Under the pieces are notes generated by a model. That model searched no databases. It saw nothing but the letters and a program-made list of their open reading frames with translations, and was not told the DNA's origin. A DNA stretch of 37,342 nt from Promethearchaeota archaeon (GTDB lineage: Archaea > Asgardarchaeota > Lokiarchaeia > Sigyniarchaeales > SOKP01), in contig SDNY01000025.1 of the NCBI GenBank assembly GCA_004524535.1, positions 1 through 37,342 on the forward strand. Reading direction: 5' to 3'. Shown piece by piece: positions 3,384 through 37,342 of this stretch. The position numbers and the translations under genes were made by a program. Positions within the stretch are counted from its first letter, which is position 1. Each line of letters opens with the position of its first letter.

Positions 3384-3560
3384 CTATAGTTTTTCATACA
3401 TATTTTTAGATATCCGCTTAATATAACCTTCTAAATAAAATTGTTTTAATATATTTCTTGCTTTACGAACATCAGAAGCATTAATTTCTAGAATACTCAT
3501 TAATTGAAATATTGAAAATTGTTTTGGCAATTTATCTTTAATATTGCTGTATAGTCCCAT
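3384..3560 (-). CDS. Small winged-helix DNA-binding protein, 58 aa (absent from the ORF track)
   Basis: Manual translation MGLYSNIKDKLPKQFSIFQLMSILEINASDVRKARNILKQFYLEGYIKRISKNMYEKL*. The helix-helix-wing pattern (LEGYIKRISKNMY) is typical of wHTH. Confidence 0.65.
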   Translation of the reverse strand: MGLYSNIKDKLPKQFSIFQLMSILEINASDVRKARNILKQFYLEGYIKRISKNMYEKL

Positions 3561-3802
3561 GGTTATTACACTTTTCTTTTTACTTTAAAAATTATGTTAT
3601 AATAGAAGTTTTTAAAATTTTTAAAATGTGTGAATTATAAATGAAAAAAGGTTTTTATAATTCTCAAAGTAACTATAAGTTTTCATTCCCATTTAAAATA
3701 GGTCATCCTTGTCTAGTTTCAATCATTGAAATTTTCACAACCTTAGGAAATTCCTATTGAAAATAATTTTGGATAAATTAAAAAGAATCGCATGATTTTA
3801 AA

Positions 3803-5416
3803 TTAAATATTTTTATTTTTCATTATACGATTTAAACCCTTCACTAAGGCTAAAACAGAGCTCATTACAATATCTTCATGGGCAGCACTTGAATTCACTA
3901 TATAATTGCTTTCTAAATCTATTAATTCAATTGTAACTTGGCCTAAAGATTCAGTTCCCCCTGTTACAGCATCAATATTGTAATTTAAAAGTTTTATTTT
4001 ACTCATTGGTTCAAAACATTTAACAATTGCTTTAACTGATGCGTCTACAGGCCCCACTCCAATCGATGAGGCAATTCTTTCTATAAATGTTCCATTATTA
4101 CGGATTTTTAAACGAACAGTAGATGTAGGGGTGACTGAGCCTGTTAAAACAGTTAATTCTTCAAGTATAACATATTGTTCTTCTTTTGGGAGCTCTCCCA
4201 TAACATCCTTTACTATCGCTAAAAAATCTTCTTCTGTAACTTCGTGACCTTTATCACCAAAATTTTTAACATGATTCATGATTTCATTAAATTGAGTATC
4301 TTTAGTTACTATTCCCATACCTTCTAATTTTGCTCTTAGCGCGTGACCTCCAGTATGTTTCCCGAGTTTAATAGATTGTCGCAAAATATCTTCAACATCA
4401 TCTGATCGCTGAATTCCTATTAATTCTGGAGTTATTGGTTCATAAGCACGCGCATTTTTAATCATTGCATGTGCATGAATACCCGATTCATGAGAAAAGG
4501 CATTTTTCCCAATTAAAGGTTGCAACCTTCCAATGCGTATCTTTCCGCCACAATAACTTTCAACCAATTTAGCAGTTGTAAAGATCTTTCTTGTATTTAT
4601 ATTCATCGGGATTTGATATAAAGCGTAAAATGACATTGCAGTTTCTTCAAATGAAGCATTTCCAGCACGTTCACCCAAACCCATTATTGTAGTTTGAGCT
4701 TCTGAAGCTCCATTTTCAAAACCTACAATCGTATTTGCCACAGCCAAACCAAAGTCATTATGGCAATGTACCGCAATGCGAACATTTTTGGGTAATGCTT
4801 CATAAATTTTACGAATGATATAACCAAATGCTGTTGGAGTAATAGTTCCAACTGTATCGGGAATATTTACTCGGGTAGCTCCATTTTCAACTGCTATTTG
4901 ATTCGCTCTAATTAAAAAATCTAAATCAGAACGAGTAGCATCTTCGGCTGAAAATAAAATTTTTGAATAATGTTCTTTTGCATATGTAATCATTTTTGAT
5001 ATTTGATTTAGCACATCATCTCGAGTCATTTGAAGTTTTGATTTCATATGCAGATCTGATGTCGCAATAAACACATGTATACTATCCATATCAGCTTCAA
5101 TAACCTTGTCTATATCTACTTTTGTCATCCGAGCTAACCCAATTACTTCCATATCTAAGCCCAATTTGGCGATATCACGGCAAGCTTTAAAATCTCCTTG
5201 AGATACAATGGGAAACCCGGCTTCAATTACATCAATACCTAATTCACTTAAAGCTTGTGCTATAGATAGCTTTTCTTCATGTGTAAAACTAATGCCTGGC
5301 GTTTGTTCTCCATCGCGAAGGGTCGTATCAAAAAAATAAACTTTTTCGGGTAAGTTTAACGATCCTCGAATTTTATCCATCATCGCTGAAACATGTACCT
5401 TATTTTTTTCAATCAT
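3803..5416 (-). CDS. leuA: 2-isopropylmalate synthase / citramalate synthase family (DRE-TIM) with C-terminal regulatory domain
   Basis: FFDTTLRDGEQTPG, HCHNDFGLAVAN, GLGERAGN, HESGIH, and C-terminal GVGPVDA/EDIVMSS. LeuA and CimA cannot be separated by eye. Confidence 0.88.
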   Translation of the reverse strand: MIEKNKVHVSAMMDKIRGSLNLPEKVYFFDTTLRDGEQTPGISFTHEEKLSIAQALSELGIDVIEAGFPIVSQGDFKACRDIAKLGLDMEVIGLARMTKVDIDKVIEADMDSIHVFIATSDLHMKSKLQMTRDDVLNQISKMITYAKEHYSKILFSAEDATRSDLDFLIRANQIAVENGATRVNIPDTVGTITPTAFGYIIRKIYEALPKNVRIAVHCHNDFGLAVANTIVGFENGASEAQTTIMGLGERAGNASFEETAMSFYALYQIPMNINTRKIFTTAKLVESYCGGKIRIGRLQPLIGKNAFSHESGIHAHAMIKNARAYEPITPELIGIQRSDDVEDILRQSIKLGKHTGGHALRAKLEGMGIVTKDTQFNEIMNHVKNFGDKGHEVTEEDFLAIVKDVMGELPKEEQYVILEELTVLTGSVTPTSTVRLKIRNNGTFIERIASSIGVGPVDASVKAIVKCFEPMSKIKLLNYNIDAVTGGTESLGQVTIELIDLESNYIVNSSAAHEDIVMSSVLALVKGLNRIMKNKNI

Positions 5417-8374: not shown

Positions 8375-8479
8375 GCTTCTGTAGTGTAGTGCGGTCAAAC
8401 TTCTCCTTAAATTAAGAATAAGGATCACGCATGCGAGGCTCTCACCCTCGCGACCCGGGTTCAAATCCCGGCAGAAGCA
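8375..8479 (+). tRNA. tRNA-Glu(CTC) with an ~30-nt intron in the D-arm (about 8399-8428)
   Basis: Acceptor stem GCTTCTG/CAGAAGC, anticodon arm CGAGG-CT-CTC-AC-CCTCG, T-arm CCGGG-TTCAAAT-CCCGG. Removing about 8399-8428 restores the D-arm GTGT-AGTGCGGTCAA-GCAT. No encoded CCA. Confidence 0.93.
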
Positions 8480-8880
8480 TTATCATCTATTTTATTCAAT
8501 AAATCATATATTTTTGTTAAAATCTTTACGTAACGTTCAATTAAATCTATTTGTGTCTCAATTTTTAATTTTTGAGAAATGTAATCGATCTTTTCTTCAA
8601 TAATCTTTTTTAAAGATTTAAATTTAATATCAGAATTTATTTTAGTTTTTATAAGTTTTTCGTTGTTAATGATTCTTTTTTCTAATGACATATTGGATAT
8701 TTGTTGATTGTTATCATCTTTTTTAACTAAAACCCTTTTATTACAAATTGGACAAAGAATCTCATTATCTTTATTGCGAAAAAGAGGATTGTTACATATT
8801 GGGCATGCTAAATTTAACATCGTATGGCCAGATCGAAGAAGTTCCGCCATTTTTTTAGCTTCTTCTTTAATAATAATCAC
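8461..8880 (-). CDS. UPF0148 / Sjogren's syndrome-scleroderma autoantigen 1 family Zn-ribbon protein
   Basis: KKMAELLRSGHTMLNLACPICNNPLF...CPIC is the characteristic N-terminal signature. Confidence 0.85.
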   Translation of the reverse strand: MIIIKEEAKKMAELLRSGHTMLNLACPICNNPLFRNKDNEILCPICNKRVLVKKDDNNQQISNMSLEKRIINNEKLIKTKINSDIKFKSLKKIIEEKIDYISQKLKIETQIDLIERYVKILTKIYDLLNKIDDNASAGI

Positions 8881-9364: not shown

Positions 9365-10570
9365 ATGAATACTGATTTGTTTGAAGAACTATTAAAGCAG
9401 CCTTCAAATTTCAAAGATGAAAGTACACTTGATATAAATTTTGTTCCAGACAGATTACCACACAGAAGAAAAGAATTGTCTTTACTATCTCAACTTTTTT
9501 TAACACTATTAACAAATCCAAATGTAATTTCAAGAAAAATTTTGATAACTGGGAAAACTGGTATAGGTAAAACTGTTACTGTTAAGTTGTTTGGAATGAT
9601 ATTAAGTGAAGCATCAAAAAAAAGAAATATTTCTCTAAAATATATCCATGTAAATTGTAGAAAAGAACGTACGAGTTATAAAGTATTAATAAAGATTATA
9701 CAATCAATAAATAATAATTTTCCAAAAAGGGGATTTTCTTCACAGGATCTTTTAGAGAGTATAAATAATTATCTTAATATTCAAAATCAACACCTTTTAA
9801 TCGTGCTTGATGAATTAAATTATCTTATAAAAAAAGATAAGGATGTAATTTATTCGTTAACTCGTTTAAACGATGATTCATTTAATGTCCCCCAGAGATT
9901 ATCAATCATTGGAATTGTAAGAGATATTTCTTGTATAAACAATTTAGATGCAAGCACATTAAGTACACTTCAAAGAAATATTATAAATTTTGATGTATAT
10001 ACTAATCAACAAATCTTCGATATTTTAAAATTTAGAGCAGAGCTTAGTTTAAAAAAAAATGTGATATCGGATGAATTAATTAAAATGATATCAAATATAG
10101 TTTTCGTGGAAGGCGATATAAGATATGGTTTAAATTTATTATGGAAGGCTTGCAAAATTGCTGAGAGTAAGGACTTAAAATTGATTACTTCCGAATGTGT
10201 TAGGCTAGCGAATCATGATTTGGTTCCATTTTCAACTTTAGATGTCTTAAAGGACATGCCGGTGCAAAAACTTATATTTTTACTTTCAATTGTAATCCTT
10301 TTAAAAAAAAAAAAAGAACCACAAATATCATTCATGGAGATTTTAAAATCATATCTTGTGTTATGCGAAAATACTGGTATGAATCCTCGCTCTTATTCCC
10401 AACTATGGAACTATCTACAAGAACATAAAAGAGAAAACTTAATAACAATAAATTTAAAGAGTAAAGAGATTAGAGGAAGGAGAGCTTTAGTTGAAATTCA
10501 GGATATACCTTTACCAAAATATGAAGAAATAATCATAGATATTTTGAATTCAAAAGGTATAAATATATGA
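9365..10570 (+). CDS. cdc6: Orc1/Cdc6 replication initiator (AAA+ plus wHTH)
   Basis: FVPDRLPHR, Walker A GKTGIGKT, HVNC, Walker B IVLDE, GDIRYGL. Confidence 0.93.
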   Translation: MNTDLFEELLKQPSNFKDESTLDINFVPDRLPHRRKELSLLSQLFLTLLTNPNVISRKILITGKTGIGKTVTVKLFGMILSEASKKRNISLKYIHVNCRKERTSYKVLIKIIQSINNNFPKRGFSSQDLLESINNYLNIQNQHLLIVLDELNYLIKKDKDVIYSLTRLNDDSFNVPQRLSIIGIVRDISCINNLDASTLSTLQRNIINFDVYTNQQIFDILKFRAELSLKKNVISDELIKMISNIVFVEGDIRYGLNLLWKACKIAESKDLKLITSECVRLANHDLVPFSTLDVLKDMPVQKLIFLLSIVILLKKKKEPQISFMEILKSYLVLCENTGMNPRSYSQLWNYLQEHKRENLITINLKSKEIRGRRALVEIQDIPLPKYEEIIIDILNSKGINI

Positions 10571-11583: not shown

Positions 11584-11898
11584 ATGAAAGAGATTATTAC
11601 AAAAGATTCTTTAAACCAATCTATTGAATTGATTTCAGAGTTGAATCTCAACGACGAGGATTATGAAAAAATTTTCGAAAAATTTAAATTAATGTTGAAT
11701 AATTCGGAAATGAAAGAAGCAATTAAAAAATTTTCAGGAGTCAGAGAGATTGAAAAAGAAAATGACTTAAAAACAATTATGAAAACGCTTATAAATAAGA
11801 TAAGATTATCTGACTTAAATCAATTATTAGGAAATATTGTTAAAAACGAGGATCTCATAGATTTTATTCAAGATTTGTTTTTAGAGAAATTAATCTAA
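11584..11898 (+). CDS. Hypothetical acidic helical protein
   Basis: 104-aa ORF with an ATG start and host-like composition. Confidence 0.65.
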   Translation: MKEIITKDSLNQSIELISELNLNDEDYEKIFEKFKLMLNNSEMKEAIKKFSGVREIEKENDLKTIMKTLINKIRLSDLNQLLGNIVKNEDLIDFIQDLFLEKLI

Positions 11899-12075
11899 AT
11901 TCTTATTTTATTTTTTTTTTATCTTAAGCTCATTTTTAATCCAAATAAAAGGTTCTATAATATTAAAGATAAAACTTTATTTTCGTAGTTGTATAATGTT
12001 TTAAAAAAATCAAAATATCATTAGTTTAAACTCAAAATTTTTATCCTAGAGAAAATATCTTAAAGATTCTTCTTC

Positions 12076-12085
12076 TTGCCGATAC
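12076..12085 (+). repeat. Left terminal inverted repeat TTGCCGATAC
   Basis: Exact reverse complement of GTATCGGCAA at 20361-20370. Both copies sit at the compositional borders of the element. Confidence 0.55.
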
Positions 12086-12127
12086 TCGTATTAGAGATAA
12101 TATGCTTCGCTTCTTTATTATAAGCCA

Positions 12128-12523
12128 CTATTCAATTTTTATTACTTTCATGGTAATAATTCCCTTGTATCGACATATATCACAATAATAATTTATTTTT
12201 GTATTATTATCATAGACATTATTTAATAAATATAGATTTTTTATTCTTCCACAATTAGCACATTTCCCTTTTAAATATACTACTTTTTTAGCCAACTGAT
12301 GTAAGGAAATATTCGGTAATTCCTCTTTATCTGACATTCTATTTGTCCTAATTCTGTATTCTTTATCTGGATATGACATTAATTTTTCCCCCGTTTTCAT
12401 AGAAAAAATCATGATATAATTTTTAAAATATTTATAATATGCCTTTTCATATTCCCCCACCATTTTATTCTTTTCTTTTTCATACACATATATCGTAGTC
12501 ATTAAGGTATCTCTCCAATTCAT
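12128..12523 (-). CDS. Element protein with C-terminal Zn finger
   Basis: CANC...CDIC. Last gene of the minus-strand array. Confidence 0.75.
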   Translation of the reverse strand: MNWRDTLMTTIYVYEKEKNKMVGEYEKAYYKYFKNYIMIFSMKTGEKLMSYPDKEYRIRTNRMSDKEELPNISLHQLAKKVVYLKGKCANCGRIKNLYLLNNVYDNNTKINYYCDICRYKGIITMKVIKIE

Positions 12524-12748
12524 TTAAGGTATTTCTCCCTTCCATAATTCCCATATTTTCTTATTTTCAATATCTACCATCTTATCCAAGATTTTCGATA
12601 TATTATAATAAGCCGTCTTAATATTTTCTCTTTCTTCCACATTCCCCATAATTCCCACTCTGAAACCATAACTCTGATAATCTTTTGTATATTTCCGATG
12701 CACCGATATTTTTATTTCTTTTACACTTACCACTAACGCATCACCCAC
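12524..12748 (-). CDS. Element hypothetical protein
   Basis: Abuts the downstream gene. The exact start is uncertain. Confidence 0.65.
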   Translation of the reverse strand: MGDALVVSVKEIKISVHRKYTKDYQSYGFRVGIMGNVEERENIKTAYYNISKILDKMVDIENKKIWELWKGEIP

Positions 12749-12761
12749 ATTTCATAAATCT

Positions 12762-12929
12762 TTATTCTAATAAAGCATTCAATTTTTCGATTAAATCCTT
12801 AACTTCATTTTCTTCAAGATACAACATTAATATATCACCATACATATCTTCGAACAGAATTCTAAACAGCTTTCCATTTACACCAACTTTTATCTTTTCT
12901 ATTTCTTCCATTCCAAATTCTATTGGCAT
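12762..12929 (-). CDS. Element hypothetical protein, 55 aa (absent from the ORF track)
   Basis: MPIEFGMEEIEKIKVGVNGKLFRILFEDMYGDILMLYLEENEVKDLIEKLNALLE*. TAATG overlap with the Rep stop codon and an upstream GGTGA SD. Confidence 0.7.
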   Translation of the reverse strand: MPIEFGMEEIEKIKVGVNGKLFRILFEDMYGDILMLYLEENEVKDLIEKLNALLE

Positions 12930-13753
12930 TAATATATCACCTTATCATACATTCCTTTTTTGATATTTTTTATTTTTCTAAATAATTTTCTATATCCATT
13001 TTCCCCAAACGAATCATAATACTCTATAAAGTTCTGTTTCGTAAGCAATAATTTACTAATACACTGATTATACTTTACCATATCACTTTTTTTAAACATC
13101 GGCTTTACAACAAATTGATAACCACGCCCAAAATTCCACTTTTTTCCGCTACTTTTGATTTTTCCTAATTTAGTTGGTTTTAGTAAATCCTTATTTACAT
13201 AATATATTAAATTTCTTTTATGCTGACTTCCTAGACCTTTTAATTCTCGTGCATACACAATTCCTTTACCCCATTTTCTATACAACAAATAACCCATCAT
13301 TATTTCCACATCAGATTTTTTATAATTCATATAGTGTGTTCGTGCTTTTTTTATCATTTTAATTATATCAACTTTCCCTGCTTCCCAACCCTTTCTAAAC
13401 ATTTTTTTTGCTATATATTCCTTATTAAATTTTTTTTTAAATTCAAATAACAAATGAAAATGTGATCTCTGATTTTTCGTTCCTTCTTCATATTTCCAGA
13501 AATATTTTCTTCCTTTGTTATATATCGTTTTTGTATCTCTTAAAAAACCTTCCAATTCTTTTCCACTTGCACCCCCCTTCCTTAACATTTCATTTAATGA
13601 TTCCGTATTATAAGTCAATACTACATGCCATTCCCATTTAATTCCCGTTACCCCTATTATTTTATCCCGCATATCCTGTAATGATTTGCTTATTTTAGGA
13701 TATACATCCCAAAACCCTTCTTCATTATATACCGAATTTACTAATTTACTCAT
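12929..13753 (-). CDS. HUH rolling-circle replication initiator (Rep), catalytic motifs intact
   Basis: Motif I WHVVLTY, motif II YFWKYEEG...RSHFHLLF (HUH), then WGKG, and motif III YYVNKDL (YxxK). Confidence 0.85.
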   Translation of the reverse strand: MSKLVNSVYNEEGFWDVYPKISKSLQDMRDKIIGVTGIKWEWHVVLTYNTESLNEMLRKGGASGKELEGFLRDTKTIYNKGRKYFWKYEEGTKNQRSHFHLLFEFKKKFNKEYIAKKMFRKGWEAGKVDIIKMIKKARTHYMNYKKSDVEIMMGYLLYRKWGKGIVYARELKGLGSQHKRNLIYYVNKDLLKPTKLGKIKSSGKKWNFGRGYQFVVKPMFKKSDMVKYNQCISKLLLTKQNFIEYYDSFGENGYRKLFRKIKNIKKGMYDKVIY

Positions 13754-14589
13754 ACCTTCAATTTCACTTGTTTCTTTATTCCTTTTTTCATTTCCATTAA
13801 ATCATTTATCGTTCTTGCATACACTATTTCCCCAGAATAGTCTCTTTTTTCTGTAAAGTATTTTATAAAATTCTCTTTGGTGCTCTCCAAACTTTTTTCC
13901 GCTTCTTCCACCGATACATTTCCCAGCCATTCATATTCCGATTTTTTTTTTACCTTCTTAGTTTTAATTCCCCTCGAAAATCCATATTTTCTTTTATTTG
14001 GTTTAAACCCTTCCGTTCCCGTTCTTTTAGCCACATCTTTTTCCACTTGCTCAATTAATTCTTCCATCGATGTAATTTCCCTTGCATATACAATTCCCTT
14101 ATCCCATAATCTATACATTGAATATCCCATAATTATATCGTTATCCGATTTTTCCTTATTCATTTCATACCCCTTTTGCACTCGAATTACCTCTTTCATA
14201 TCATTTACCCCCATGACTTTTTCTAGTTCCTTTTTTTTCTTGTCTACATCCTTTAACTCAAATAATAAATGAAAGTGTGGTCGCTCTGATTTCCTCCCTT
14301 CTTCATACTTCCAAAAATGTTTTTCCTCAGGAAATATCTTTTTTATTTTTGTTAAATACCCCCGTAATATCGTTGAATCTATTCCCTTTTTTTTCTTTTC
14401 CTCATAGACTTCACTATTCAATGATAATACGACATGATAGTTCCAATTTACCCCTTCACAATTATATATTTTATGTCGCATTCTCATCGTAGATTGAGAA
14501 ATGGTTTTCATTCCCTTCGGAACACGAATATTATAGAATTCCGCTTCTATATGCCATAATAAAGTAATTTCTACAACCGCAGAACTCAT
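13750..14589 (-). CDS. HUH Rep paralog lacking the motif III tyrosine
   Basis: YHVVLSL, HFWKYEEG...RPHFHLLF, WDKGIVYARE, then EQVEKDV where the paralog has YYVNKDL. Confidence 0.82.
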   Translation of the reverse strand: MSSAVVEITLLWHIEAEFYNIRVPKGMKTISQSTMRMRHKIYNCEGVNWNYHVVLSLNSEVYEEKKKKGIDSTILRGYLTKIKKIFPEEKHFWKYEEGRKSERPHFHLLFELKDVDKKKKELEKVMGVNDMKEVIRVQKGYEMNKEKSDNDIIMGYSMYRLWDKGIVYAREITSMEELIEQVEKDVAKRTGTEGFKPNKRKYGFSRGIKTKKVKKKSEYEWLGNVSVEEAEKSLESTKENFIKYFTEKRDYSGEIVYARTINDLMEMKKGIKKQVKLKV

Positions 14590-14592
14590 TTT

Positions 14593-14805
14593 TTACCTCT
14601 TCAGAAATTTTTCAATACTATTTAATTTTACTTTATACCCACATTCAATATTATTGCAATAATAAATAATGTTATTTCCCTCTTTTTTAAGCCATACCCT
14701 TCCTTCTCCACATCGTGGGCATACCTTGTCTGTTTCCTTACATAAATATTTTTGCCCAATTATTCCCATAATTATTGTCATAATTATTCCCATAATTTTT
14801 TCCAT
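14593..14805 (-). CDS. Small Zn-ribbon protein
   Basis: CPRCG...YCNNIECGY, preceded by a short hydrophobic repeat (IMGII twice). Confidence 0.7.
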   Translation of the reverse strand: MEKIMGIIMTIIMGIIGQKYLCKETDKVCPRCGEGRVWLKKEGNNIIYYCNNIECGYKVKLNSIEKFLKR

Positions 14806-15225
14806 CTATTCCATCCACTCAAGCAATCTATTCGTCATATCTCTAATTTTTTCCAATACCCCATAATTATCCTCAATTATCTTACTTGCATAATTACCAT
14901 TTATTTTTTCAAGTTCTTTCATATATTCTACCGTCCTCCAAAAATGTGATACTAACTTATCAATTTTTATCTTATCAGCTACTTGTTTTTCGTCATTCAC
15001 ATCACTTTTTATTGATACCGCTTTTTCAGAAGACCCCGCTTCTCCCATTTTTTCCAATAACCAACTTTTCACTTTAATTATTTGCAATCCTTCTTTATCT
15101 TTCGAATCTACATCTCTTACTTGCGATTTTGGAAACCATTGTTCTCTTCCATCTGGTAATCTAAATAGGAACGCTTTACCTGATTCCGCTACTAAATAAC
15201 ACTCAAAATCTTTAAACTCACTCAT
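14806..15225 (-). CDS. Virus-type small beta-domain protein (WFPKSQ motif), possibly nucleic-acid binding
   Basis: ESGKAFLFRLPDGREQWFPKSQV resembles a motif common in small phage proteins. GAGGT SD present. The function is inferred. Confidence 0.65.
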   Translation of the reverse strand: MSEFKDFECYLVAESGKAFLFRLPDGREQWFPKSQVRDVDSKDKEGLQIIKVKSWLLEKMGEAGSSEKAVSIKSDVNDEKQVADKIKIDKLVSHFWRTVEYMKELEKINGNYASKIIEDNYGVLEKIRDMTNRLLEWME

Positions 15226-15313
15226 ATTTTTTACCTCTTTTTATTTTATTTTAATCTATTTTATTTTATTTTATTTCATTATAAAAAAAAAAAAAAAGCT
15301 GTTAATTAATTTT

Positions 15314-15727
15314 TTAAATTTTTCTTGAATATGCTCTTGAAGATGAACTTTTACTTGTTTTACCCGAATACTCTTTTTCTTCGTAATTTCTACATCGCCA
15401 GCAAGCTGGTTTCGGTTTAAACATTGGTTTACCTTTATCATCTTTTTTTCCAAAAGTTTTATCCCTATGAATCCCTGACATCATCTGGAATTTTATATAA
15501 TCTTTCCCATCATCCTCATATTTCGGGCATGGAACTTTTTCAAGATTATACATTCTACTTATTGGTATACAGAATAAAATATCTTTCCCACCTCTTGCTA
15601 CTCTTACCCAGATAGCTTTTCCAGATTTTACCGCTACAACACTTCCTCCAGCAATACTGAGCATAATTGATTTCCCATCCATCGTCTTATTATACGCACA
15701 TTCATAAATATAAGTTTTTAGCTCCAT
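15314..15727 (-). CDS. Element basic hypothetical protein
   Basis: 137 aa, Lys-rich, CWRC motif, GAGGTGA SD. Confidence 0.7.
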   Translation of the reverse strand: MELKTYIYECAYNKTMDGKSIMLSIAGGSVVAVKSGKAIWVRVARGGKDILFCIPISRMYNLEKVPCPKYEDDGKDYIKFQMMSGIHRDKTFGKKDDKGKPMFKPKPACWRCRNYEEKEYSGKTSKSSSSRAYSRKI

Positions 15728-15729
15728 TT

Positions 15730-16074
15730 TTATATCTTCACCTCGATAAATTTATCATGATGCTGATATTCTTTCACTTTATTTATGGTATCTTTCACGA
15801 ATTCATTGATTTGGGCTATCGTATCCGCTTCATTTGACTTTGACATTAATTTCTTAAAGGTAATCTCTAATTCTGTTATCAATACCTTTTTCCATTTTTT
15901 TCCCAGTTTCATGACTCCTCTCAGAAATTTCTTGTTTTGACTTGTTATATCGTATCCTAATTTTATCAACAATCTCTTCCATTTTCTCCTATTTGACAAT
16001 ATCCAAATAAAGAAAGTTATTACCGATGTTAAACTAATCGTTACTATCCCACCACCTATTACAATATCAAACAC
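15730..16074 (-). CDS. Element membrane-anchored protein
   Basis: N-terminal TM segment followed by basic RRKWKR and a helical tail. GAGGTGA SD before a GTG start. Confidence 0.75.
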   Translation of the reverse strand: MFDIVIGGGIVTISLTSVITFFIWILSNRRKWKRLLIKLGYDITSQNKKFLRGVMKLGKKWKKVLITELEITFKKLMSKSNEADTIAQINEFVKDTINKVKEYQHHDKFIEVKI

Positions 16075-16085
16075 TTTTTATCACC

Positions 16086-16724
16086 TCAGAACCATCCTTT
16101 TTTCTTCTTCTTCGATTTCTTTGGTTTTGGCAGTTTAAATACCGATTTTACTGTTTTTTTCGCTTTCTTAGAAGAGACTTTTGGTAATGCTATTATACTT
16201 TTTCGCTTCATTGTATTTGCAAATAGTTTTGGCACATCTACTGTTTTTTTCTTAGTCGCCTTTGCGACTGCACTTCCGAAGATACTAAATCTTTTACCAA
16301 CATCCCCGCCCATTTTACTCATACTTTTTGTAATCCCTGACAATCCTTTTGGGATACCTTTTGAGCTCAGCTTCAATCCTTCTCCAATAGTTCCAGAGAA
16401 CATTTTACCTATTCCCCCACCAATATCACTAACTCCACCTGTAATCATTTTCCCAAGACCACTAACTCCACCTGTAACCATTTGTCCAAGTTTACTTAAT
16501 CCACCCATTGCTTGTTGTCCAAGTCCACCTACCCCACCGAAGAAGGTTTCTCCTAATTTGCTAAATCCACCGAACAGTTTACCCCGAAGAACATACCATC
16601 CCACTAACACCGCTCCCGTTACACCCCCGCCTATCAATAGATATTTTATCCATTTCCTTCCCGAACTTCTTTGCCCTTTATTTCCTAACATTCCCATCAT
16701 TTGCGGAACAACAGTCATCGCCAT
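16086..16724 (-). CDS. Gly-rich membrane protein with 11-residue repeats and a Lys-rich tail (putative virion membrane or DNA-pilot protein)
   Basis: TM segment YLLIGGGVTGAVLVGWYVL, then repeats GGFSKLGETFF/GGVGGLGQQAM/GGLSKLGQMVT/GGVSGLGKMIT, then KPKKSKKKKKGWF. Confidence 0.75.
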   Translation of the reverse strand: MAMTVVPQMMGMLGNKGQRSSGRKWIKYLLIGGGVTGAVLVGWYVLRGKLFGGFSKLGETFFGGVGGLGQQAMGGLSKLGQMVTGGVSGLGKMITGGVSDIGGGIGKMFSGTIGEGLKLSSKGIPKGLSGITKSMSKMGGDVGKRFSIFGSAVAKATKKKTVDVPKLFANTMKRKSIIALPKVSSKKAKKTVKSVFKLPKPKKSKKKKKGWF

Positions 16725-16734
16725 TTTTTATCAC

Positions 16735-17157
16735 CTAAATCCTTCGTGAACCGCTACCGCTACGAACTTTTTGTAATTTTGGAACACCTGTTTTTACCGC
16801 ATCAAATAGCTTAGCTCCCCACTTCGTCGCTGTCGCAATATTCTGTAAAAAATCACTGATTCTTTTTAGTAGATCATTATCAATCTGTATCCCAAATGTT
16901 TTAAAGATATTGTCGATAAATTGCATGTTATCTCCTACCGTATCTACCGATTCCGCTAAATCCGAGCTGTTATATACTTTTATTTTATCATACAAAGGAG
17001 CTAACTTTACCCCTACATCAGTCCCTTTATCTATGATAATTAACGCCCCTGCACCAATCAATATCCACGGCAATGCTCTCAACACATTATCTATCGAAAA
17101 AAAATCTGCTAAAAAGTTTTTCGCTGAATCTTCGTCAATCTTTTTTATTTCCGACAT
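16735..17157 (-). CDS. Element membrane protein (putative virion membrane protein)
   Basis: Hydrophobic segment ALPWILIGAGALIII and a basic C-terminus. Confidence 0.7.
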   Translation of the reverse strand: MSEIKKIDEDSAKNFLADFFSIDNVLRALPWILIGAGALIIIDKGTDVGVKLAPLYDKIKVYNSSDLAESVDTVGDNMQFIDNIFKTFGIQIDNDLLKRISDFLQNIATATKWGAKLFDAVKTGVPKLQKVRSGSGSRRI

Positions 17158-17167
17158 CTAAATCCCC

Positions 17168-17911
17168 CTATTGTGATGGGCTTAATAGTTCTTCCACTTC
17201 TTCGGGCAAGAATCCTTTTCCTATTACTAATCGGGTATCAATTGCAATACTACCTGAAATACTACCCCCATTCGTGCTAGCCGCACAATATCCTAATCCA
17301 TGCGAACCAATATATAAATATAGAATATCTTTTAGCTTTTCCACACTAAATGACGATTTTATCGGAGTAAATATAGGTATTGAATTCTTCTTAGTCGTAG
17401 TTGCAATAACACCTTCAGCATTGCTTACAAGACCATTTTCTGGAGTAGTTTGATATGCTGAATACGGAAACCCTATACAATCTTCATTATTCCAAGATGT
17501 TATCGGCTTTCTACTTATCCAATATTTCAAATGCCCCCCTTTCAATCTTGCTACTGCATCTGCGGGCTCACTCGACAAACTCATTGTTATTAGTGTTTGC
17601 ACTCCATATATTTCCACTTCTTTACATGGATATTCAATCAACATATCCTGTGGAAATATATCCCCCGACTCGAACTGCACATTCTCTGGATTTTGGTCGT
17701 ATTCATGGAAATGTTCCGCTTGACTCCCTGCACCAATTGACCCCGCAATGGTTATAGTCCTTGTTTTTTTCTCACTTAACGCCACAAAGCTCTCTCCATA
17801 TCGCATGACAAACCTTCCACTTTCTCTTAGAATTACTTCTAGAGCATTACTTGTTATACTTTTCACTAACCCAATGTTTACTATTTTATTATCCCCTGTT
17901 ATAAAAGTCAT
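17168..17911 (-). CDS. Beta-rich 247-aa protein, candidate major capsid protein
   Basis: Largest non-Rep ORF, with alternating hydrophobic strand patterns and an AGGTGA SD. The ORF is well supported; the capsid role is inference only. Confidence 0.55.
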   Translation of the reverse strand: MTFITGDNKIVNIGLVKSITSNALEVILRESGRFVMRYGESFVALSEKKTRTITIAGSIGAGSQAEHFHEYDQNPENVQFESGDIFPQDMLIEYPCKEVEIYGVQTLITMSLSSEPADAVARLKGGHLKYWISRKPITSWNNEDCIGFPYSAYQTTPENGLVSNAEGVIATTTKKNSIPIFTPIKSSFSVEKLKDILYLYIGSHGLGYCAASTNGGSISGSIAIDTRLVIGKGFLPEEVEELLSPSQ

Positions 17912-17929
17912 ATTTTTTTTTCACCTGCT

Positions 17930-18118
17930 TCATACATCACTTTTAATTTTTAATAATGGTGATAGGTCTTTACGGTCATTCGTGTTAACATTACTAATGC
18001 TCACCCCTACTTGCGATAATCTATTTTGTTGAGCTTCATCCACGATTATTAACACCCCTATTCTTGCACCGACCACAGTTTTATCGCATTCATGAATAAT
18101 ATATAATATTATTTTCAT
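17930..18118 (-). CDS. Element hypothetical protein
   Basis: ATGA overlap with the upstream ORF. Confidence 0.55.
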   Translation of the reverse strand: MKIILYIIHECDKTVVGARIGVLIIVDEAQQNRLSQVGVSISNVNTNDRKDLSPLLKIKSDV

Positions 18119-18303
18119 GGCAATACTCTATTTTCTACTATTTTTTTTACCGATTCATTCTTTTGTCCACATCGAAAAATCGGTCTTAATTTATCAATTC
18201 GCATTTTCCTTTCTTCCAGCCCTACCTTAATAATAGTTCCTTCACAAAAAGGAAAATTATTCCATCTACATCCTATACAGGTTTCATTTATTTTATTTTC
18301 CAT
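18115..18303 (-). CDS. Small Cys-rich element protein
   Basis: CIGCRWNNFPFCEG...FRCG, with a GGAGG SD. Confidence 0.7.
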   Translation of the reverse strand: MENKINETCIGCRWNNFPFCEGTIIKVGLEERKMRIDKLRPIFRCGQKNESVKKIVENRVLP

Positions 18304-18308
18304 TTTTT

Positions 18309-18845
18309 CTAATCCCTCCTTTTTTTAAATACCACTTGAATCGTATATACTTCTACCGACCGACCCGCATGATTTAATTTAATTTGCATTGCTACAATAT
18401 CACCAATTTCAAAATTTTCTTTTCTTAATATATAAAGATATTTTTGTCCACCTAATTCCCCACACGCTGGAAATTCTATATCCACATTATTTTCTACATT
18501 TTCCATAGTCCCTTGTTCAGAACCATCAGTCTTACATGCACCGACATTTAACTTCATATTAACCACCCCTCCATTTGCATCTATTCGCATGAACGGAATA
18601 ATCATTTTTATATCAAAGTTGTCATCCCACTGCTTATCTATATATACCGAACATGATATATTAGCTCCTACTACATTCATTACAATTCCCGGCACATACA
18701 TAATTGCTCCATTCAGATAACTTAACGATAAATTTGTCGTAGTAAACGGTGAACCCACAAAACTCAATACTTCTCCCTTTTTACATTGTGGTCTTATTTT
18801 CCCTACTTCTTTTTCATATTGGTCTATTTCCCATTGTTCTGTCAT
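18309..18845 (-). CDS. Beta-rich protein, paralog B (candidate spike/receptor-binding protein)
   Basis: Alignable over its full length with 18849-19388 (MTEQWE.DQYEK, VGSPF, WD.NFD.K.IIP, DGSE, NVEN.V.I.FP, GDIV). Confidence 0.75.
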   Translation of the reverse strand: MTEQWEIDQYEKEVGKIRPQCKKGEVLSFVGSPFTTTNLSLSYLNGAIMYVPGIVMNVVGANISCSVYIDKQWDDNFDIKMIIPFMRIDANGGVVNMKLNVGACKTDGSEQGTMENVENNVDIEFPACGELGGQKYLYILRKENFEIGDIVAMQIKLNHAGRSVEVYTIQVVFKKRRD

Positions 18846-18848
18846 CTT

Positions 18849-19388
18849 TTATTCCCTTTTTTTTTTATAAGTTATTTCCCACGCATATATTCTTACATCC
18901 CTATCACTTTGATTTAATACTATGCCTATTGATACAATATCCCCCTGATGAATATTTTCACTCCGTAGTAAATATTGATATTTTCCAAAACAATTATACC
19001 CCACATCTGGAAATGTTATACCCACTTCATTTTCTACATTATACCCATCATATTCTTCGCTCCCATCTGAGCTATAAGCATATACTCTTAATTTAAATTG
19101 CACACCCCCGCCACCATTAGTATCGTATCTAAAATACGGAATAATCACTTTTACATCAAAATTTTCATCCCATTTTGAATCTACATACATACTTATTCCC
19201 ACGACATCATTTATTTCACTCATTCGTATTTGGTCGCTACACATAGTTGCTCGATAATAGAAAGGTGTCAAAACAGCCGTATTAAATGGAGATCCTACAT
19301 CCATTACAACATCCCCTTTTTCAACGCATGTCGGTTTTATCTTTTTACAAGCTTTTTCGTATTGGTCAAGTTCCCATTGCTCAGTCAT
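18849..19388 (-). CDS. Beta-rich protein, paralog A (candidate spike/receptor-binding protein)
   Basis: The true start is probably ATG 19388 (MTEQWEL...), which follows GGAGG and matches the paralog's N-terminus. Confidence 0.75.
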   Translation of the reverse strand: MTEQWELDQYEKACKKIKPTCVEKGDVVMDVGSPFNTAVLTPFYYRATMCSDQIRMSEINDVVGISMYVDSKWDENFDVKVIIPYFRYDTNGGGGVQFKLRVYAYSSDGSEEYDGYNVENEVGITFPDVGYNCFGKYQYLLRSENIHQGDIVSIGIVLNQSDRDVRIYAWEITYKKKRE

Positions 19389-19521
19389 TACATGCCTCCA
19401 CATTCCGTATTAAAATCCGTATTATCCCAAACACTTTATTCTTATCCAAAATCTCTGCTTCTTTCCATATATACATTACCGTTTTTTCTATTTCATATTT
19501 CATATCGTCATTTAACTCCAT
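19381..19521 (-). CDS. Element hypothetical protein, 46 aa (absent from the ORF track)
   Basis: MELNDDMKYEIEKTVMYIWKEAEILDKNKVFGIIRILIRNVEACND*. It overlaps the next start (ATGACTGA) and fills the gap in the operon. Confidence 0.6.
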   Translation of the reverse strand: MELNDDMKYEIEKTVMYIWKEAEILDKNKVFGIIRILIRNVEACND

Positions 19522-19525
19522 AATG

Positions 19526-19714
19526 CTATAGACCCCCCAATTTCTTTCCACAATATGGGCAGAATTTCATTCCTTCCCCCATAAACTTTACTCCATTTTC
19601 TTTCGCCAAATAATCTACAATCAACATATAATCCACTAATTTTTGCCATTCTTTACACTTACACTTTTTCAATGAGAAGCACATCCATTGTTCACTTATC
19701 TCAGTCTTTTCCAT
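19526..19714 (-). CDS. Small Zn-binding element protein
   Basis: KCKCKEW...FCPYCGKKL. Confidence 0.7.
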   Translation of the reverse strand: MEKTEISEQWMCFSLKKCKCKEWQKLVDYMLIVDYLAKENGVKFMGEGMKFCPYCGKKLGGL

Positions 19715-19925
19715 GTTCTTCCACCATCCTTTTTAGCTCCATTTTTAGCTCCATTTTTATACGCTCACCTCGATAGACTCTATATACCTGATACTGAATG
19801 CATTTTTTATACTTACAAAAGCAGTAATATTCATTCTTAAATATTGTCTCACATCCTTCAAAATACGGGCATTCCTCCACTCTTACTTGCTGATTCTCTA
19901 TAATATGATTTTCCATTTCCCTCAC
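19701..19925 (-). CDS. Small Cys-rich element protein, first gene of the minus-strand array
   Basis: CPYFEGC...YCFCKYKKCIQY. The start may instead be ATG at 19916. Confidence 0.65.
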   Translation of the reverse strand: MREMENHIIENQQVRVEECPYFEGCETIFKNEYYCFCKYKKCIQYQVYRVYRGERIKMELKMELKRMVEEHGKD

Positions 19926-19952
19926 TTCTTAAAATGTAAGTTCTACGAAAAA
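19923..19952 (-). repeat. Degenerate inverted copy of the 20273-20302 site
   Basis: The reverse complement reads TTTTTCGTAGAA-CTTACA-TTTTAAGAAGTG, with the same 6-bp spacer and similar arms. Confidence 0.7.
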
Positions 19953-20080
19953 CCTAATAGGAAGTATGAAAATAGGAAAAAAAGGAAATATTTAAAAGGA
20001 AAAAATATCACTTTATAAATTGTTGTGTATTGAAATTATCGACATAATTATAAAAAAAAAAAGATCGTGATGTTTTGTAA

Positions 20081-20272
20081 ATGAATGGTTTTGAATATGA
20101 AACTAAAGATAAGGAAGGATGGGAAACTTTTTATATCGTAGAAGAAATGAAAATAAATTACAAACAATGGAATGAAACATTATATTTAGAAGTTAAATAT
20201 ATAGATGCTGATGGAAATCATTCAGAGAAGGAATTCTTTTTTAAAGAAGATATTAAATTAAAAATATATTAA
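20081..20272 (+). CDS. Small acidic protein, the only plus-strand gene of the element
   Basis: 63-aa ATG ORF that lies between the two inverted 30-bp sites. Confidence 0.65.
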   Translation: MNGFEYETKDKEGWETFYIVEEMKINYKQWNETLYLEVKYIDADGNHSEKEFFFKEDIKLKIY

Positions 20273-20302
20273 AAGTTCGTGAAACTTACATTTCACGAAC
20301 TT
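20273..20302. repeat. Perfect palindrome with 12-bp arms and a 6-bp spacer
   Basis: AAGTTCGTGAAA-CTTACA-TTTCACGAACTT. Confidence 0.9.
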
Positions 20303-20360
20303 ACCCCCATATCTTCAGAATACCCTAATAATATCCCCCAAATCTCAATTTGGATTTTTT

Positions 20361-20370
20361 GTATCGGCAA
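20361..20370 (-). repeat. Right terminal inverted repeat GTATCGGCAA
   Basis: Reverse complement of 12076-12085. Confidence 0.55.
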
Positions 20371-20526
20371 AAAAGACTGCCTAAAAAATCCTACACTCTC
20401 ATATTAATAACCCACACTTATACACTTTATATTATCACAAATAAATACTTGTCAAATTAAGATTACTAATGTTGAGATGTGTGCACAATATAATAATTAG
20501 TAATTATAATTAATTATATATATAAT

Positions 20527-20615
20527 ATTACTAGTAATTTATTTAATTATATTATTTAATTATTTATTTATTATTTAATTACTAGTAATTAATTTAATTA
20601 TATTATTTAATTATT
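20527..20615. repeat. 38-bp direct repeat (two copies, 1 mismatch, period 51) in a nearly pure A/T tract
   Basis: ATTACTAGTAATT(T/A)ATTTAATTATATTATTTAATTATT at 20527 and 20578. Each copy begins with the palindrome ATTACTAGTAAT. Confidence 0.8.
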
Positions 20616-20793
20616 AATATTAATTAACAATTATAGATATATTACATATAATAATTGTGAACTTCAATATTACTATTAATTTATTATTGCTATAATTTAT
20701 ATTGAAACCATCTGTAAAGATATAAAATTTTAAATTTAAAAATTTCTATGTTATTAATGAAATTATATAATTCCCTAATGTGAAAAATAAAAA

Positions 20794-21186
20794 ATGGAGA
20801 TTGAAAAGAAGAGAGAGACTTCGTGGAAAATCCAATTAAAAAAAACAGATGAATATATAGAAATAACTTCGGTTGAAATTAGTGGTGAAGTAAGACAAAT
20901 TAAGCTTGGGCTTATAAATAAAGATAAATCTATTAGAGTTGAAATGAGTAAAGAAGATTTTTTCAAATTTCTTTCTCTAATATCTGCATTTAAGGATGTA
21001 GTTATTGGTGAGGAGTCAATATTAGTAGAAAGTGAATTAAATATCGTTGAAGATAAACCAGAAAAAATTCAAGAGTATTCACAAATAGAAGATGATCTCT
21101 ATCAAATAAATTCTAAACCTTCTGAAGAATCTATGGAAAATAACGATACAGAAGAATTAAATCCTGAAGAATGGGATCCTTGGTAA
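20794..21186 (+). CDS. Hypothetical protein with an acidic tail ending EEWDPW
   Basis: 130-aa ORF with host-like composition. Confidence 0.75.
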   Translation: MEIEKKRETSWKIQLKKTDEYIEITSVEISGEVRQIKLGLINKDKSIRVEMSKEDFFKFLSLISAFKDVVIGEESILVESELNIVEDKPEKIQEYSQIEDDLYQINSKPSEESMENNDTEELNPEEWDPW

Positions 21187-37159: not shown

Positions 37160-37342
37160 TCAAATCAATAATTTATACGAGGTTTTATGGAGCATTTGAG
37201 GGGAAAAAGATAATTCGTCTAACACTTCTTTCAAGATCAAGGGACATTCACGAACCGTGAAATAATAGGTAAGCAAGAGACGCCAATATTCTAAATCCCT
37301 CTTACCCCGGAAATCAATAAGTTTTTTAAGCACCGAAAATAT
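37160..37342 (-). mobile_element. 3' end of a gene that runs off the window, possibly an IS transposase
   Basis: Open frame ...IFSVLKKLIDFRGKRDLEYWRLLLTYYF...LLI*. The FSxxK...RGxR pattern resembles the helix after the catalytic Glu of DDE transposases. GC is higher than in the flank. Confidence 0.4.

Follow-up and report, generated by a model that had tools for sequence, protein, structure and literature searches.

What are the two inverted sites at the head of an integrase-less, provirus-like element in the genome of a Promethearchaeota archaeon, and which protein acts on them? The element, which encodes rolling-circle replication proteins (Rep) and is flanked by host genes on both sides, lies on contig SDNY01000025.1 (assembly GCA_004524535.1); the stretch of 37,342 nucleotides from this contig that we analyzed is referred to as the window throughout. 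A first-pass annotation had proposed that the two sites, here named A and B (Table 1), are Xer-type core sites with matching spacers that delimit an invertible switch or serve as a folded attachment site. Judged by comparison with related elements, A and B may form a pair of Xer/dif-type core sites for a recombinase acting in trans and would delimit an inverting or exchangeable cassette; we tentatively adopt this reading and give it slightly less than an even chance.

The coordinates and sequences given by the first-pass annotation for both sites were exact, and site A is indeed a perfect 12-6-12 palindrome. It is the longest perfect hairpin of the 37-kb window (of 300 first-order Markov simulations of the full 37 kb, 29 produced a perfect stem of at least 12 bp with a loop of 3–8 nucleotides), and its folding energy as single-stranded DNA (ssDNA), −11.4 kcal/mol, was equalled by none of 200 shuffled sequences. 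Site B, read on the minus strand, carries the same spacer, CTTACA, so that the claim of identical spacers in inverted orientation is correct as well. B agrees with A at 21 of 30 positions; among these is an unbroken stretch of 11, AACTTACATTT, which has no other occurrence in the window. It is the best non-self match to A across the 37 kb, with runners-up of 19 of 30 at two places, and a match of at least 21 of 30 positions was found in 5 of 1000 shuffled 2-kb neighborhoods. Neither A nor B is likely to be a product of chance. The description of both as 12-6-12 sites holds for register and spacer; as a palindrome B is poor (by eye, its arms correspond at 7 of 12 positions), and its ssDNA does not fold, the energy of −0.7 to −0.8 kcal/mol being no better than that of shuffled sequences.

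One scan of species-representative genomes for relatives of the element returned four loci, L001 to L004. L001 stems from a Hermodarchaeota metagenome-assembled genome (MAG) and encodes a Rep protein that is 47% identical to that of the window, and L002, L003 and L004 are located in Promethearchaeota MAGs and encode Rep proteins with 26% identity. L001 and L003 were left out of the comparison of sites because their contigs end before the stretch upstream of the gene array is reached. L002 (NJBI01000011.1) is syntenic with the window element, and L004 (JAHPZA010000003.1) is an element of about 3 kb that has only Rep and one small protein in common with it. These two, Rep and the small protein (15314-15727 in the window), are the only proteins detectably common to all three elements. 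In L002 and L004, ordinary host genes flank the element and no recombinase is encoded in it, and the three elements are integrated at three unrelated loci.

The two-site architecture is present in all three related elements in which the upstream region is available, that is, in the window, L002 and L004 (Table 1). B and the four sites of L002 and L004 have the same register as A, with arms of about 11–12 bp on either side of a 6-bp centre. When each element was scanned with a half-site matrix derived from the arms of the other two elements, with the spacer ignored and 30 shuffles as background, the sites took the top two ranks in L002 (14.4 kb) and in L004 (20.7 kb), and ranks one and three in the window. 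A scored 33.1 bits, the top value in the window, and the highest of the 30 shuffles reached 17.3. Moreover, when the end regions of the window element (11800-12950 and 19900-20900) were used as blastn-short queries, site A was the only non-coding match to L004 beyond short AT-rich strings (26 nucleotides, 88%). The A-type sites of the three elements are all capable of forming ssDNA hairpins (−11.4, −6.3, and −9.0 kcal/mol); between 0 and 3 of 200 shuffled sequences reached an equally low energy. A search for 11-mers shared across five elements was too noisy for use.

It is the pattern of conservation within these sites that carries the argument. Within each pair, the spacers are identical (6 of 6 positions in three of three pairs, 18 of 18 in sum), always in inverted orientation, whereas the arms have 15, 13, and 15 of 24 positions in common (43 of 72 overall; Fisher p = 3.5e-4 for spacers versus arms). 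The chance of three such spacer matches in a fixed register and in either orientation is about 2e-9. Between elements the spacers, CTTACA, TATATG and TAAAAA, differ and share at most 4/6, 3/6, and 3/6 positions, whereas the arms of the A-type sites are identical at 22/24, 19/24, and 17/24 positions. The arms are thus constant across elements with proteins diverged almost beyond recognition, and the spacer is free between elements and fixed within an element; the conservation of the spacer in homologous elements, which the first-pass annotation had named as a check, was found within all three pairs and not from one element to the next. In the core sites of tyrosine recombinases the enzyme is bound at the arms, and strands can be exchanged only if the overlap of 6–8 bp is identical. 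Conserved arms together with a spacer that is matched within a pair and varies between pairs are the signature of such core sites. Furthermore, arms so conserved alongside Rep proteins with only 26% identity point to a conserved host factor as the binding protein, rather than to a fast-evolving protein of the element.

The arms also bear a likeness to one published Xer arm. Nine of the twelve half-sites match the XerC-binding arm ATTTCGTATAA, one of the pdif arms of Acinetobacter (Table 1 in PMC13141974), at no fewer than 8 of 11 positions and in the same register beside a 6-bp spacer, compared with a background of 0.6% among the 11-mers of the window. In archaea, XerA acts alone on a 28-bp dif site of 11-6-11 architecture in which 14–18 of 28 positions are as in the bacterial consensus, as described in the sources that we consulted (PMC2958812, PMC5357621, PMC3646895), and binding of both arms by a single enzyme fits the perfect dyad of site A. 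The core idea of the first-pass annotation, Xer-type core sites with matching spacers, has thereby gained strong comparative support from the recurrence of the pair, the covariation of the spacers and the likeness to the XerC arm. In family searches (Pfam/PHROG), no protein of the element or of the rest of the window was assigned to an integrase or recombinase family, and any recombinase must therefore act in trans.

On these grounds, the following course of events can be proposed for the sites in inverted orientation at the head of the integrase-less, Rep-encoding, provirus-like element. A conserved tyrosine recombinase supplied in trans, for which the host XerA would be the obvious candidate, would attach to the arms and carry out strand exchange within the identical spacers. 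Since the sites are inverted, the outcome would be an inversion of the bracketed segment; if a second element with the same spacers were present, exchange of the segments could also occur. The three elements also agree in the inverted placement of the sites around the putative promoter region, which fits an invertible segment, with inverted repeats lying around a segment and sharing an identical crossover core as in invertons.

As the first-pass annotation had pointed out, the segment between A and B contains the sole convincing opposite-strand open reading frame (ORF) of the element, ORF63. AT-rich TATA-like strings are located there as well, and this segment may carry both divergent promoters. 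The TATA-like string at 20048-20055 lies about 26 bp upstream of the start codon of ORF63, the spacing expected for a leaderless transcript; the skew of guanine over cytosine (GC skew) changes sign at the bracketed segment, and locally it is consistent with coding of ORF63 on the plus strand. ORF63 has no Pfam or PHROG family and no homologue besides itself in a set of 5.8 billion proteins. Site B is situated between the TATA-like strings and ORF63 on one side and the first gene of the minus-strand array on the other, and its right arm runs into a ribosome-binding-like GTGAGGG, 8 nucleotides ahead of the ATG at 19915. Because B lies between the putative promoter region and the first gene, a flip would change which promoter, if any, reads into the array of capsid candidate and Rep genes.

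The bracketed cargo is unrelated among the three elements and variable in size: between its sites, L004 has 141 bp and no convincing ORF, the window 320 bp and a single orphan ORF, and L002 1752 bp and five ORFs. Dif modules likewise combine conserved sites in inverse orientation with cargo that varies from one related backbone to the next. The layout in L004 is as in the window, with B 37 bp upstream of the first ORF. In L002, B faces the bracketed segment, whose five genes are oriented away from the main array; this segment includes, on the opposite strand, a homologue of the first array gene of the window (3797-4066; phmmer E = 3e-7). From the arrangement of sites and genes in the window, L004 and L002, an inversion would reconnect or disconnect promoters and genes in each of the three elements.

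Two further matches to the site model were noted in the window. One, TAATTCGTCTAA-CACTTC-TTTCAAGATCAA at 37211-37240, is the second-best arms-only match (17.4 bits, approximately the highest value of 30 shuffles); it falls into an ORF of the host at a distance of 17 kb from the element and is probably due to chance. The other, at 16740-16769, is a weaker, imperfect 12-6-12-like palindrome with TTCGT arms that lies in the element itself, where ORF 16735-17157 has its 3′ end; it agrees with A at 18 of 30 positions, has a different spacer and scores within the noise. In L001, the non-coding stretch after Rep contains a palindrome, TGAACGA-GCAT-TCGTTCA (3517-3534), with TCGTT-type half-sites in everted arrangement.

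Several points weigh against a pair of Xer/dif-type core sites. The arms-only scores of B are 15.3 bits in the window and 12.7 bits in L004, compared with top shuffles of 17.3 and 17.8, and are not significant across the locus; the weight of B in the window lies in its nearness to A together with the 6/6 match of the spacer. The comparison comprises only three pairs, the L004 spacer TAAAAA is of low complexity and the L002 spacer TATATG is nearly palindromic (4/6 positions also match in direct orientation). The likeness to the Xer arm refers to one published bacterial arm that was compared after the fact, and the host is an archaeon. No xerA gene is present in the 37-kb window. Finally, Rep, which is encoded in all three elements, or the one shared small protein could bind the palindrome, and the position of B between promoter and gene also fits an operator.

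Table 1. Positions of the sites, segments and genes discussed in the text (window coordinates unless a locus number is given)
Feature	Position	Strand	Description
Site A	20273..20302	+ (spacer CTTACA)	arms AAGTTCGTGAAA / TTTCACGAACTT; perfect 12-6-12 inverted repeat; 6-bp centre non-palindromic
Site B	19923..19952	-	TTTTTCGTAGAA-CTTACA-TTTTAAGAAGTG; degenerate 12-6-12
A-type site, L002	3759-3788		AAGATCGTGAAA-TATATG-ATCTACGATCTT
B-type site, L002	5541-5570	opposite strand	ATGTTCGTAGAA-TATATG-TTTCAAGTATTT; 1752 bp between sites
A-type site, L004	7923-7952		TAGTTCGTGAAA-TTTTTA-TTTCACGAATTT
B-type site, L004	8094-8123		TTTTTCGTAAAA-TAAAAA-TTATACGTAAAA; 141 bp between sites
Bracketed segment	19953..20272	.	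320 bp; AT-rich part with TATA-like strings, then ORF63
TATA-like strings	19990-19997; 20012-20019; 20048-20055		ATTTAAAA; TTTATAAA; TTATAAAA; read from sequence
ORF63	20081..20272	+	sole convincing opposite-strand gene of the element; orphan
First gene of minus-strand array	19701..19925	-	Cys-rich 74-aa protein; likely start ATG at 19915
Putative integrated Rep-encoding element	12040..20470	-	about 8.4 kb; ends approximate, set by composition
Rep1	12929..13753	-	HUH rolling-circle endonuclease; motifs HFHLLFE and YYVNK; Pfam PF23343, E = 1.1e-6
Rep2	13750..14589	-	Rep1 paralogue, 37% identity; HUH motif kept; Q at conserved Tyr (EQVEKD)
247-aa beta-sandwich protein, candidate capsid	17168..17911	-	65% identical to L002 5678-6436

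These last two points lead to the first alternative, which we consider unlikely: A and B may be binding sites of a protein of the element itself, Rep or the shared small protein, with A as the palindrome or cruciform of a rolling-circle origin and B as a weaker operator copy at the main promoter. The central 6–11 bp would then be an element-specific recognition code, which would explain why the centre is shared within an element. It is in line with this alternative that Rep and the small protein are the only ones common to the three elements, that the A-type sites can form hairpins in all three, and that the sites lie in a divergent intergenic region with B just ahead of the first gene. Bipartite origins, in which one palindrome is bound and one hairpin is nicked, are described for pT181-type and SNJ2 replicons in the source at hand (PMC13107129). 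An origin hairpin, however, leads to other expectations for stem and loop. The hairpin origins of circoviruses and geminiviruses are nicked in a conserved loop, whereas here the stem is conserved (17–22 of 24 positions) and the loop varies (CTTACA, TATATG, TTTTTA), and no conserved nick-like sequence occurs across the elements in the 70 nucleotides that flank the sites on each side. The B sites of the window and of L002 do not form hairpins. Binding by Rep is also difficult to reconcile with arms that are identical at 22 of 24 positions between elements with Reps of 26% identity. Moreover, binding by an element protein is indifferent to orientation, so that three inverted matches would have a chance of 1 in 8, and the half-sites resemble the Xer arm in the Xer register.

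In a second alternative, which we regard as quite improbable, the sites serve the integration of the element via host Xer, either with A and B folded together into a ssDNA attachment site (attP) as in CTXphi, which was the other proposal of the first-pass annotation, or with A alone as a dif-mimicking attP or junction. Integration of the elements at three unrelated loci without an integrase is in its favor, and so is the position of the A-type site in L002 and L004, where no recognizable feature lies farther out on the side away from Rep. After an event of the CTXphi type, one would expect a junction site with an intact inverted partner just inside it (as derived from the mechanism outlined in PMC5357621), and a rolling-circle Rep along with a jelly-roll-like capsid candidate is compatible with a ssDNA stage. 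The details nevertheless do not support the folded attP. In both minimum-energy and centroid ssDNA folds of 19910-20315, A stays a hairpin of its own and does not pair with B; arms of a pair would provide only 13–15 of 24 base pairs; the distance between the sites varies 12-fold, from 141 to 1752 nucleotides; and neither a third, full site nor an enrichment of half-sites is present at the Rep-side end of any element. A specific look for a hybrid site at the Rep-side ends of the window element, L002 and L004 yielded no full site and no half-site of at least 10.5 bits. In addition, about 170 bp with element-like composition extend beyond A in the window, and the window element is located near the 16S rRNA and cdc6 genes, which is not an obvious terminus region. 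As candidates for an attL/attR partner at the Rep-side end we found only the sub-threshold sequences TTTTCGTAG (11980) and GTCGTGAAA (L002, around 11854); as they are in opposite senses relative to the element, they were treated as chance matches.

It is very improbable that the sites have no function at all, with A as a transcript-end hairpin after ORF63 and B as a decayed duplicate or chance match, or with both as terminal inverted repeats of a nested transposon: A begins immediately 3′ of the ORF63 stop codon, the A-type site of L002 lies 9 nucleotides past the 3′ end of an 89-aa gene, and many weak repeats arise in AT-rich DNA, but the conservation and covariation statistics stand against this, no gene ends at the A-type site of L004 and no T-tract follows A. 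The nested transposon was rejected, as no target-site duplication flanks the pair, no transposase is encoded and the L002 segment contains five element-type genes.

If A and B are Xer/dif-type core sites, their closest worked-out analogue is probably the dif module of Acinetobacter plasmids (pdif; host XerC/XerD). In both cases a segment on a recombinase-less mobile element lies between inversely oriented sites of the 11-6-11 type, spacers differ between pairs and arms are conserved, and cargo varies on related backbones, as far as the plasmid modules are described in PMC13141974; there, inversion between inversely oriented sites with identical 6-bp spacers has been detected experimentally (PMC13141974). 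The arm core TTCGTA.AA is common to the Acinetobacter pdif arm and the sites reported here. Differences are the archaeal host and the single recombinase, XerA, for both arms (in the accounts of PMC2958812 and PMC5357621). Furthermore, each element has one module here and the carrier is a chromosomal, Rep-encoding, provirus-like element, known from its sequence alone, and not a Rep_3 plasmid.

Similarities also exist to invertons of the fimS type with a trans-acting recombinase, in which short inverted repeats with an identical crossover bracket a few hundred base pairs and promoters, here proposed from TATA-like strings, lie in the segment directly upstream of the genes to be controlled. Unlike in these systems, there is no adjacent invertase gene, and the L002 segment is larger (1.75 kb) and comprises five genes. 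For archaea, few invertons are documented, with 12 putative ones in 42 long-read datasets and none of them Asgard (PMC10028968). With CTXphi, the element has in common two closely spaced, inversely oriented dif-like sites, integration of an integrase-less rolling-circle element and a host recombinase, which is established there according to the account in PMC5357621 and proposed here. The CTXphi sites are about 90 nucleotides apart and pair into a fold of about 150 bp (same source). The element differs in geometry and in the pattern of matches: its spacing is 141–1752 bp, A prefers its own hairpin, there is no junction site at the other end, and the centres are best matched and the arms worst, whereas the central region of the CTXphi fold is mismatched. 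A strong hairpin-capable palindrome in an intergenic region of a Rep-encoding element is likewise a property of rolling-circle double-strand origins, from which the present sites differ by a conserved stem with a variable loop and by a second, non-hairpin copy with the same centre on the opposite strand.

The element that harbors the sites has a GC skew of about −0.5 and a higher GC content, and every gene except ORF63 is encoded on the minus strand. Besides the proteins listed in Table 1, it encodes small Zn-ribbon and membrane proteins. Both Rep2 and P0011, a metagenomic relative, have the HUH motif and a glutamine in place of the tyrosine of the catalytic motif (EQVEKD vs. YYVNKD), and Rep2 may be an inactive Rep that acts as a DNA-binding partner. 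A tandem Rep pair also occurs in L001, with the upstream copy split into two ORFs. Homologues of Rep are few: only ten were found in the 5.8-billion-protein set, and the 247-aa protein has eight in a representative set of 1.8 billion; neither matched an entry in a public phage collection. The AlphaFold2 model of the 247-aa protein (predicted local distance difference test (pLDDT) 78, predicted template-modelling score 0.75) matched single jelly-roll capsid proteins of circular Rep-encoding ssDNA (CRESS-DNA) viruses, circoviruses, nanoviruses and picornaviruses in Foldseek, with a probability near 1 and template-modelling scores of only 0.25–0.34. Adjacent to it are two paralogues of 178 and 184 aa without a family (18309-18845 and 18849-19403, minus strand, 47% identical). 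For the shared small protein (137 aa), the ESM Atlas gave no usable lead, and the model of the protein itself was poor (pLDDT 0.44). Taken together, the modelled jelly-roll-like protein, the adjacent paralogues and Rep suggest an undescribed family of small Asgard viruses. By their descriptions, skuldviruses lack a HUH Rep, two wyrdviruses possess one, and Fylgjavirus combines a double jelly-roll capsid with a tyrosine-recombinase-like gene. In the literature that we found on Asgard viruses, XerA/dif and invertons, neither such sites nor this family of elements is described, and supplementary tables may list related contigs; a review on archaeal tyrosine recombinases contains no occurrence of IMEX or Asgard.

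Host genes in the window include those for 16S rRNA (1-1384), Roadblock/LC7, small Ras/Arf-like GTPases, TFB, Orc1/Cdc6, ribosomal proteins, ABCE1 and a 105-nucleotide tRNA (8375-8479, plus strand). From the position of the host Orc1/Cdc6 gene (9365-10570), the element may sit near a replication origin. The tRNA, which presumably bears an intron, was found by Rfam and missed by ARAGORN; it overlaps the 3′ end of an opposite-strand ORF (8461-8880). The element, about 3.5 kb away, is not integrated at this tRNA. Just outside the element, the GC content of 20470-20760 falls to 7–14%, and a 51-bp tandem duplication is present (20527-20567 and 20578-20618, 95% identical). Direct repeats joining the ends of the element are limited to AT-rich 9–10-mers. 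Near both presumed ends there is an inverted 10-mer containing G and C (TTGCCGATAC at 12076-12085 and GTATCGGCAA at 20362-20371) with an expected chance count of about 0.07 by our own estimate, without a collinear second match or extension. Within the element, a 34-nucleotide direct repeat (15715-15748 and 19742-19775, 91% identical; also 19730-19747) extends over the start and ribosome-binding region of two genes on the minus strand, each of which encodes MELK at its beginning or further inside; the repeat may act as an internal promoter present twice or as a cassette for the initiation of translation.

Xer exploitation is, to our knowledge, so far known from Vibrio phages, a Neisseria island and Acinetobacter plasmids. 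Carried to its full extent, our proposal would be that small Asgard proviruses with a HUH Rep, a jelly-roll-like capsid and no integrase captured host XerA via an inverted dif-like pair, and that the host enzyme flips or swaps the cassette at their head and thereby switches expression. We advance this broader statement as a possibility held at clearly less than even confidence; the cassette would be an archaeal counterpart of a dif module, and these would be the first Xer-exploiting mobile elements and the first virus-borne inverton known from archaea. If true, the exploitation of the host chromosome-dimer resolvase by mobile elements would also occur in archaea, and there in viruses of the lineage nearest to eukaryotes, and an undescribed family of integrase-less Asgard proviruses would have a concrete cis-element for control and perhaps mobility. 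The arms of the Asgard dif site would be predicted to be close to GTTCGTGAAA, and the site pair would be usable as a recombination tool in Asgard genetics, which is now starting with cultured Lokiarchaea.

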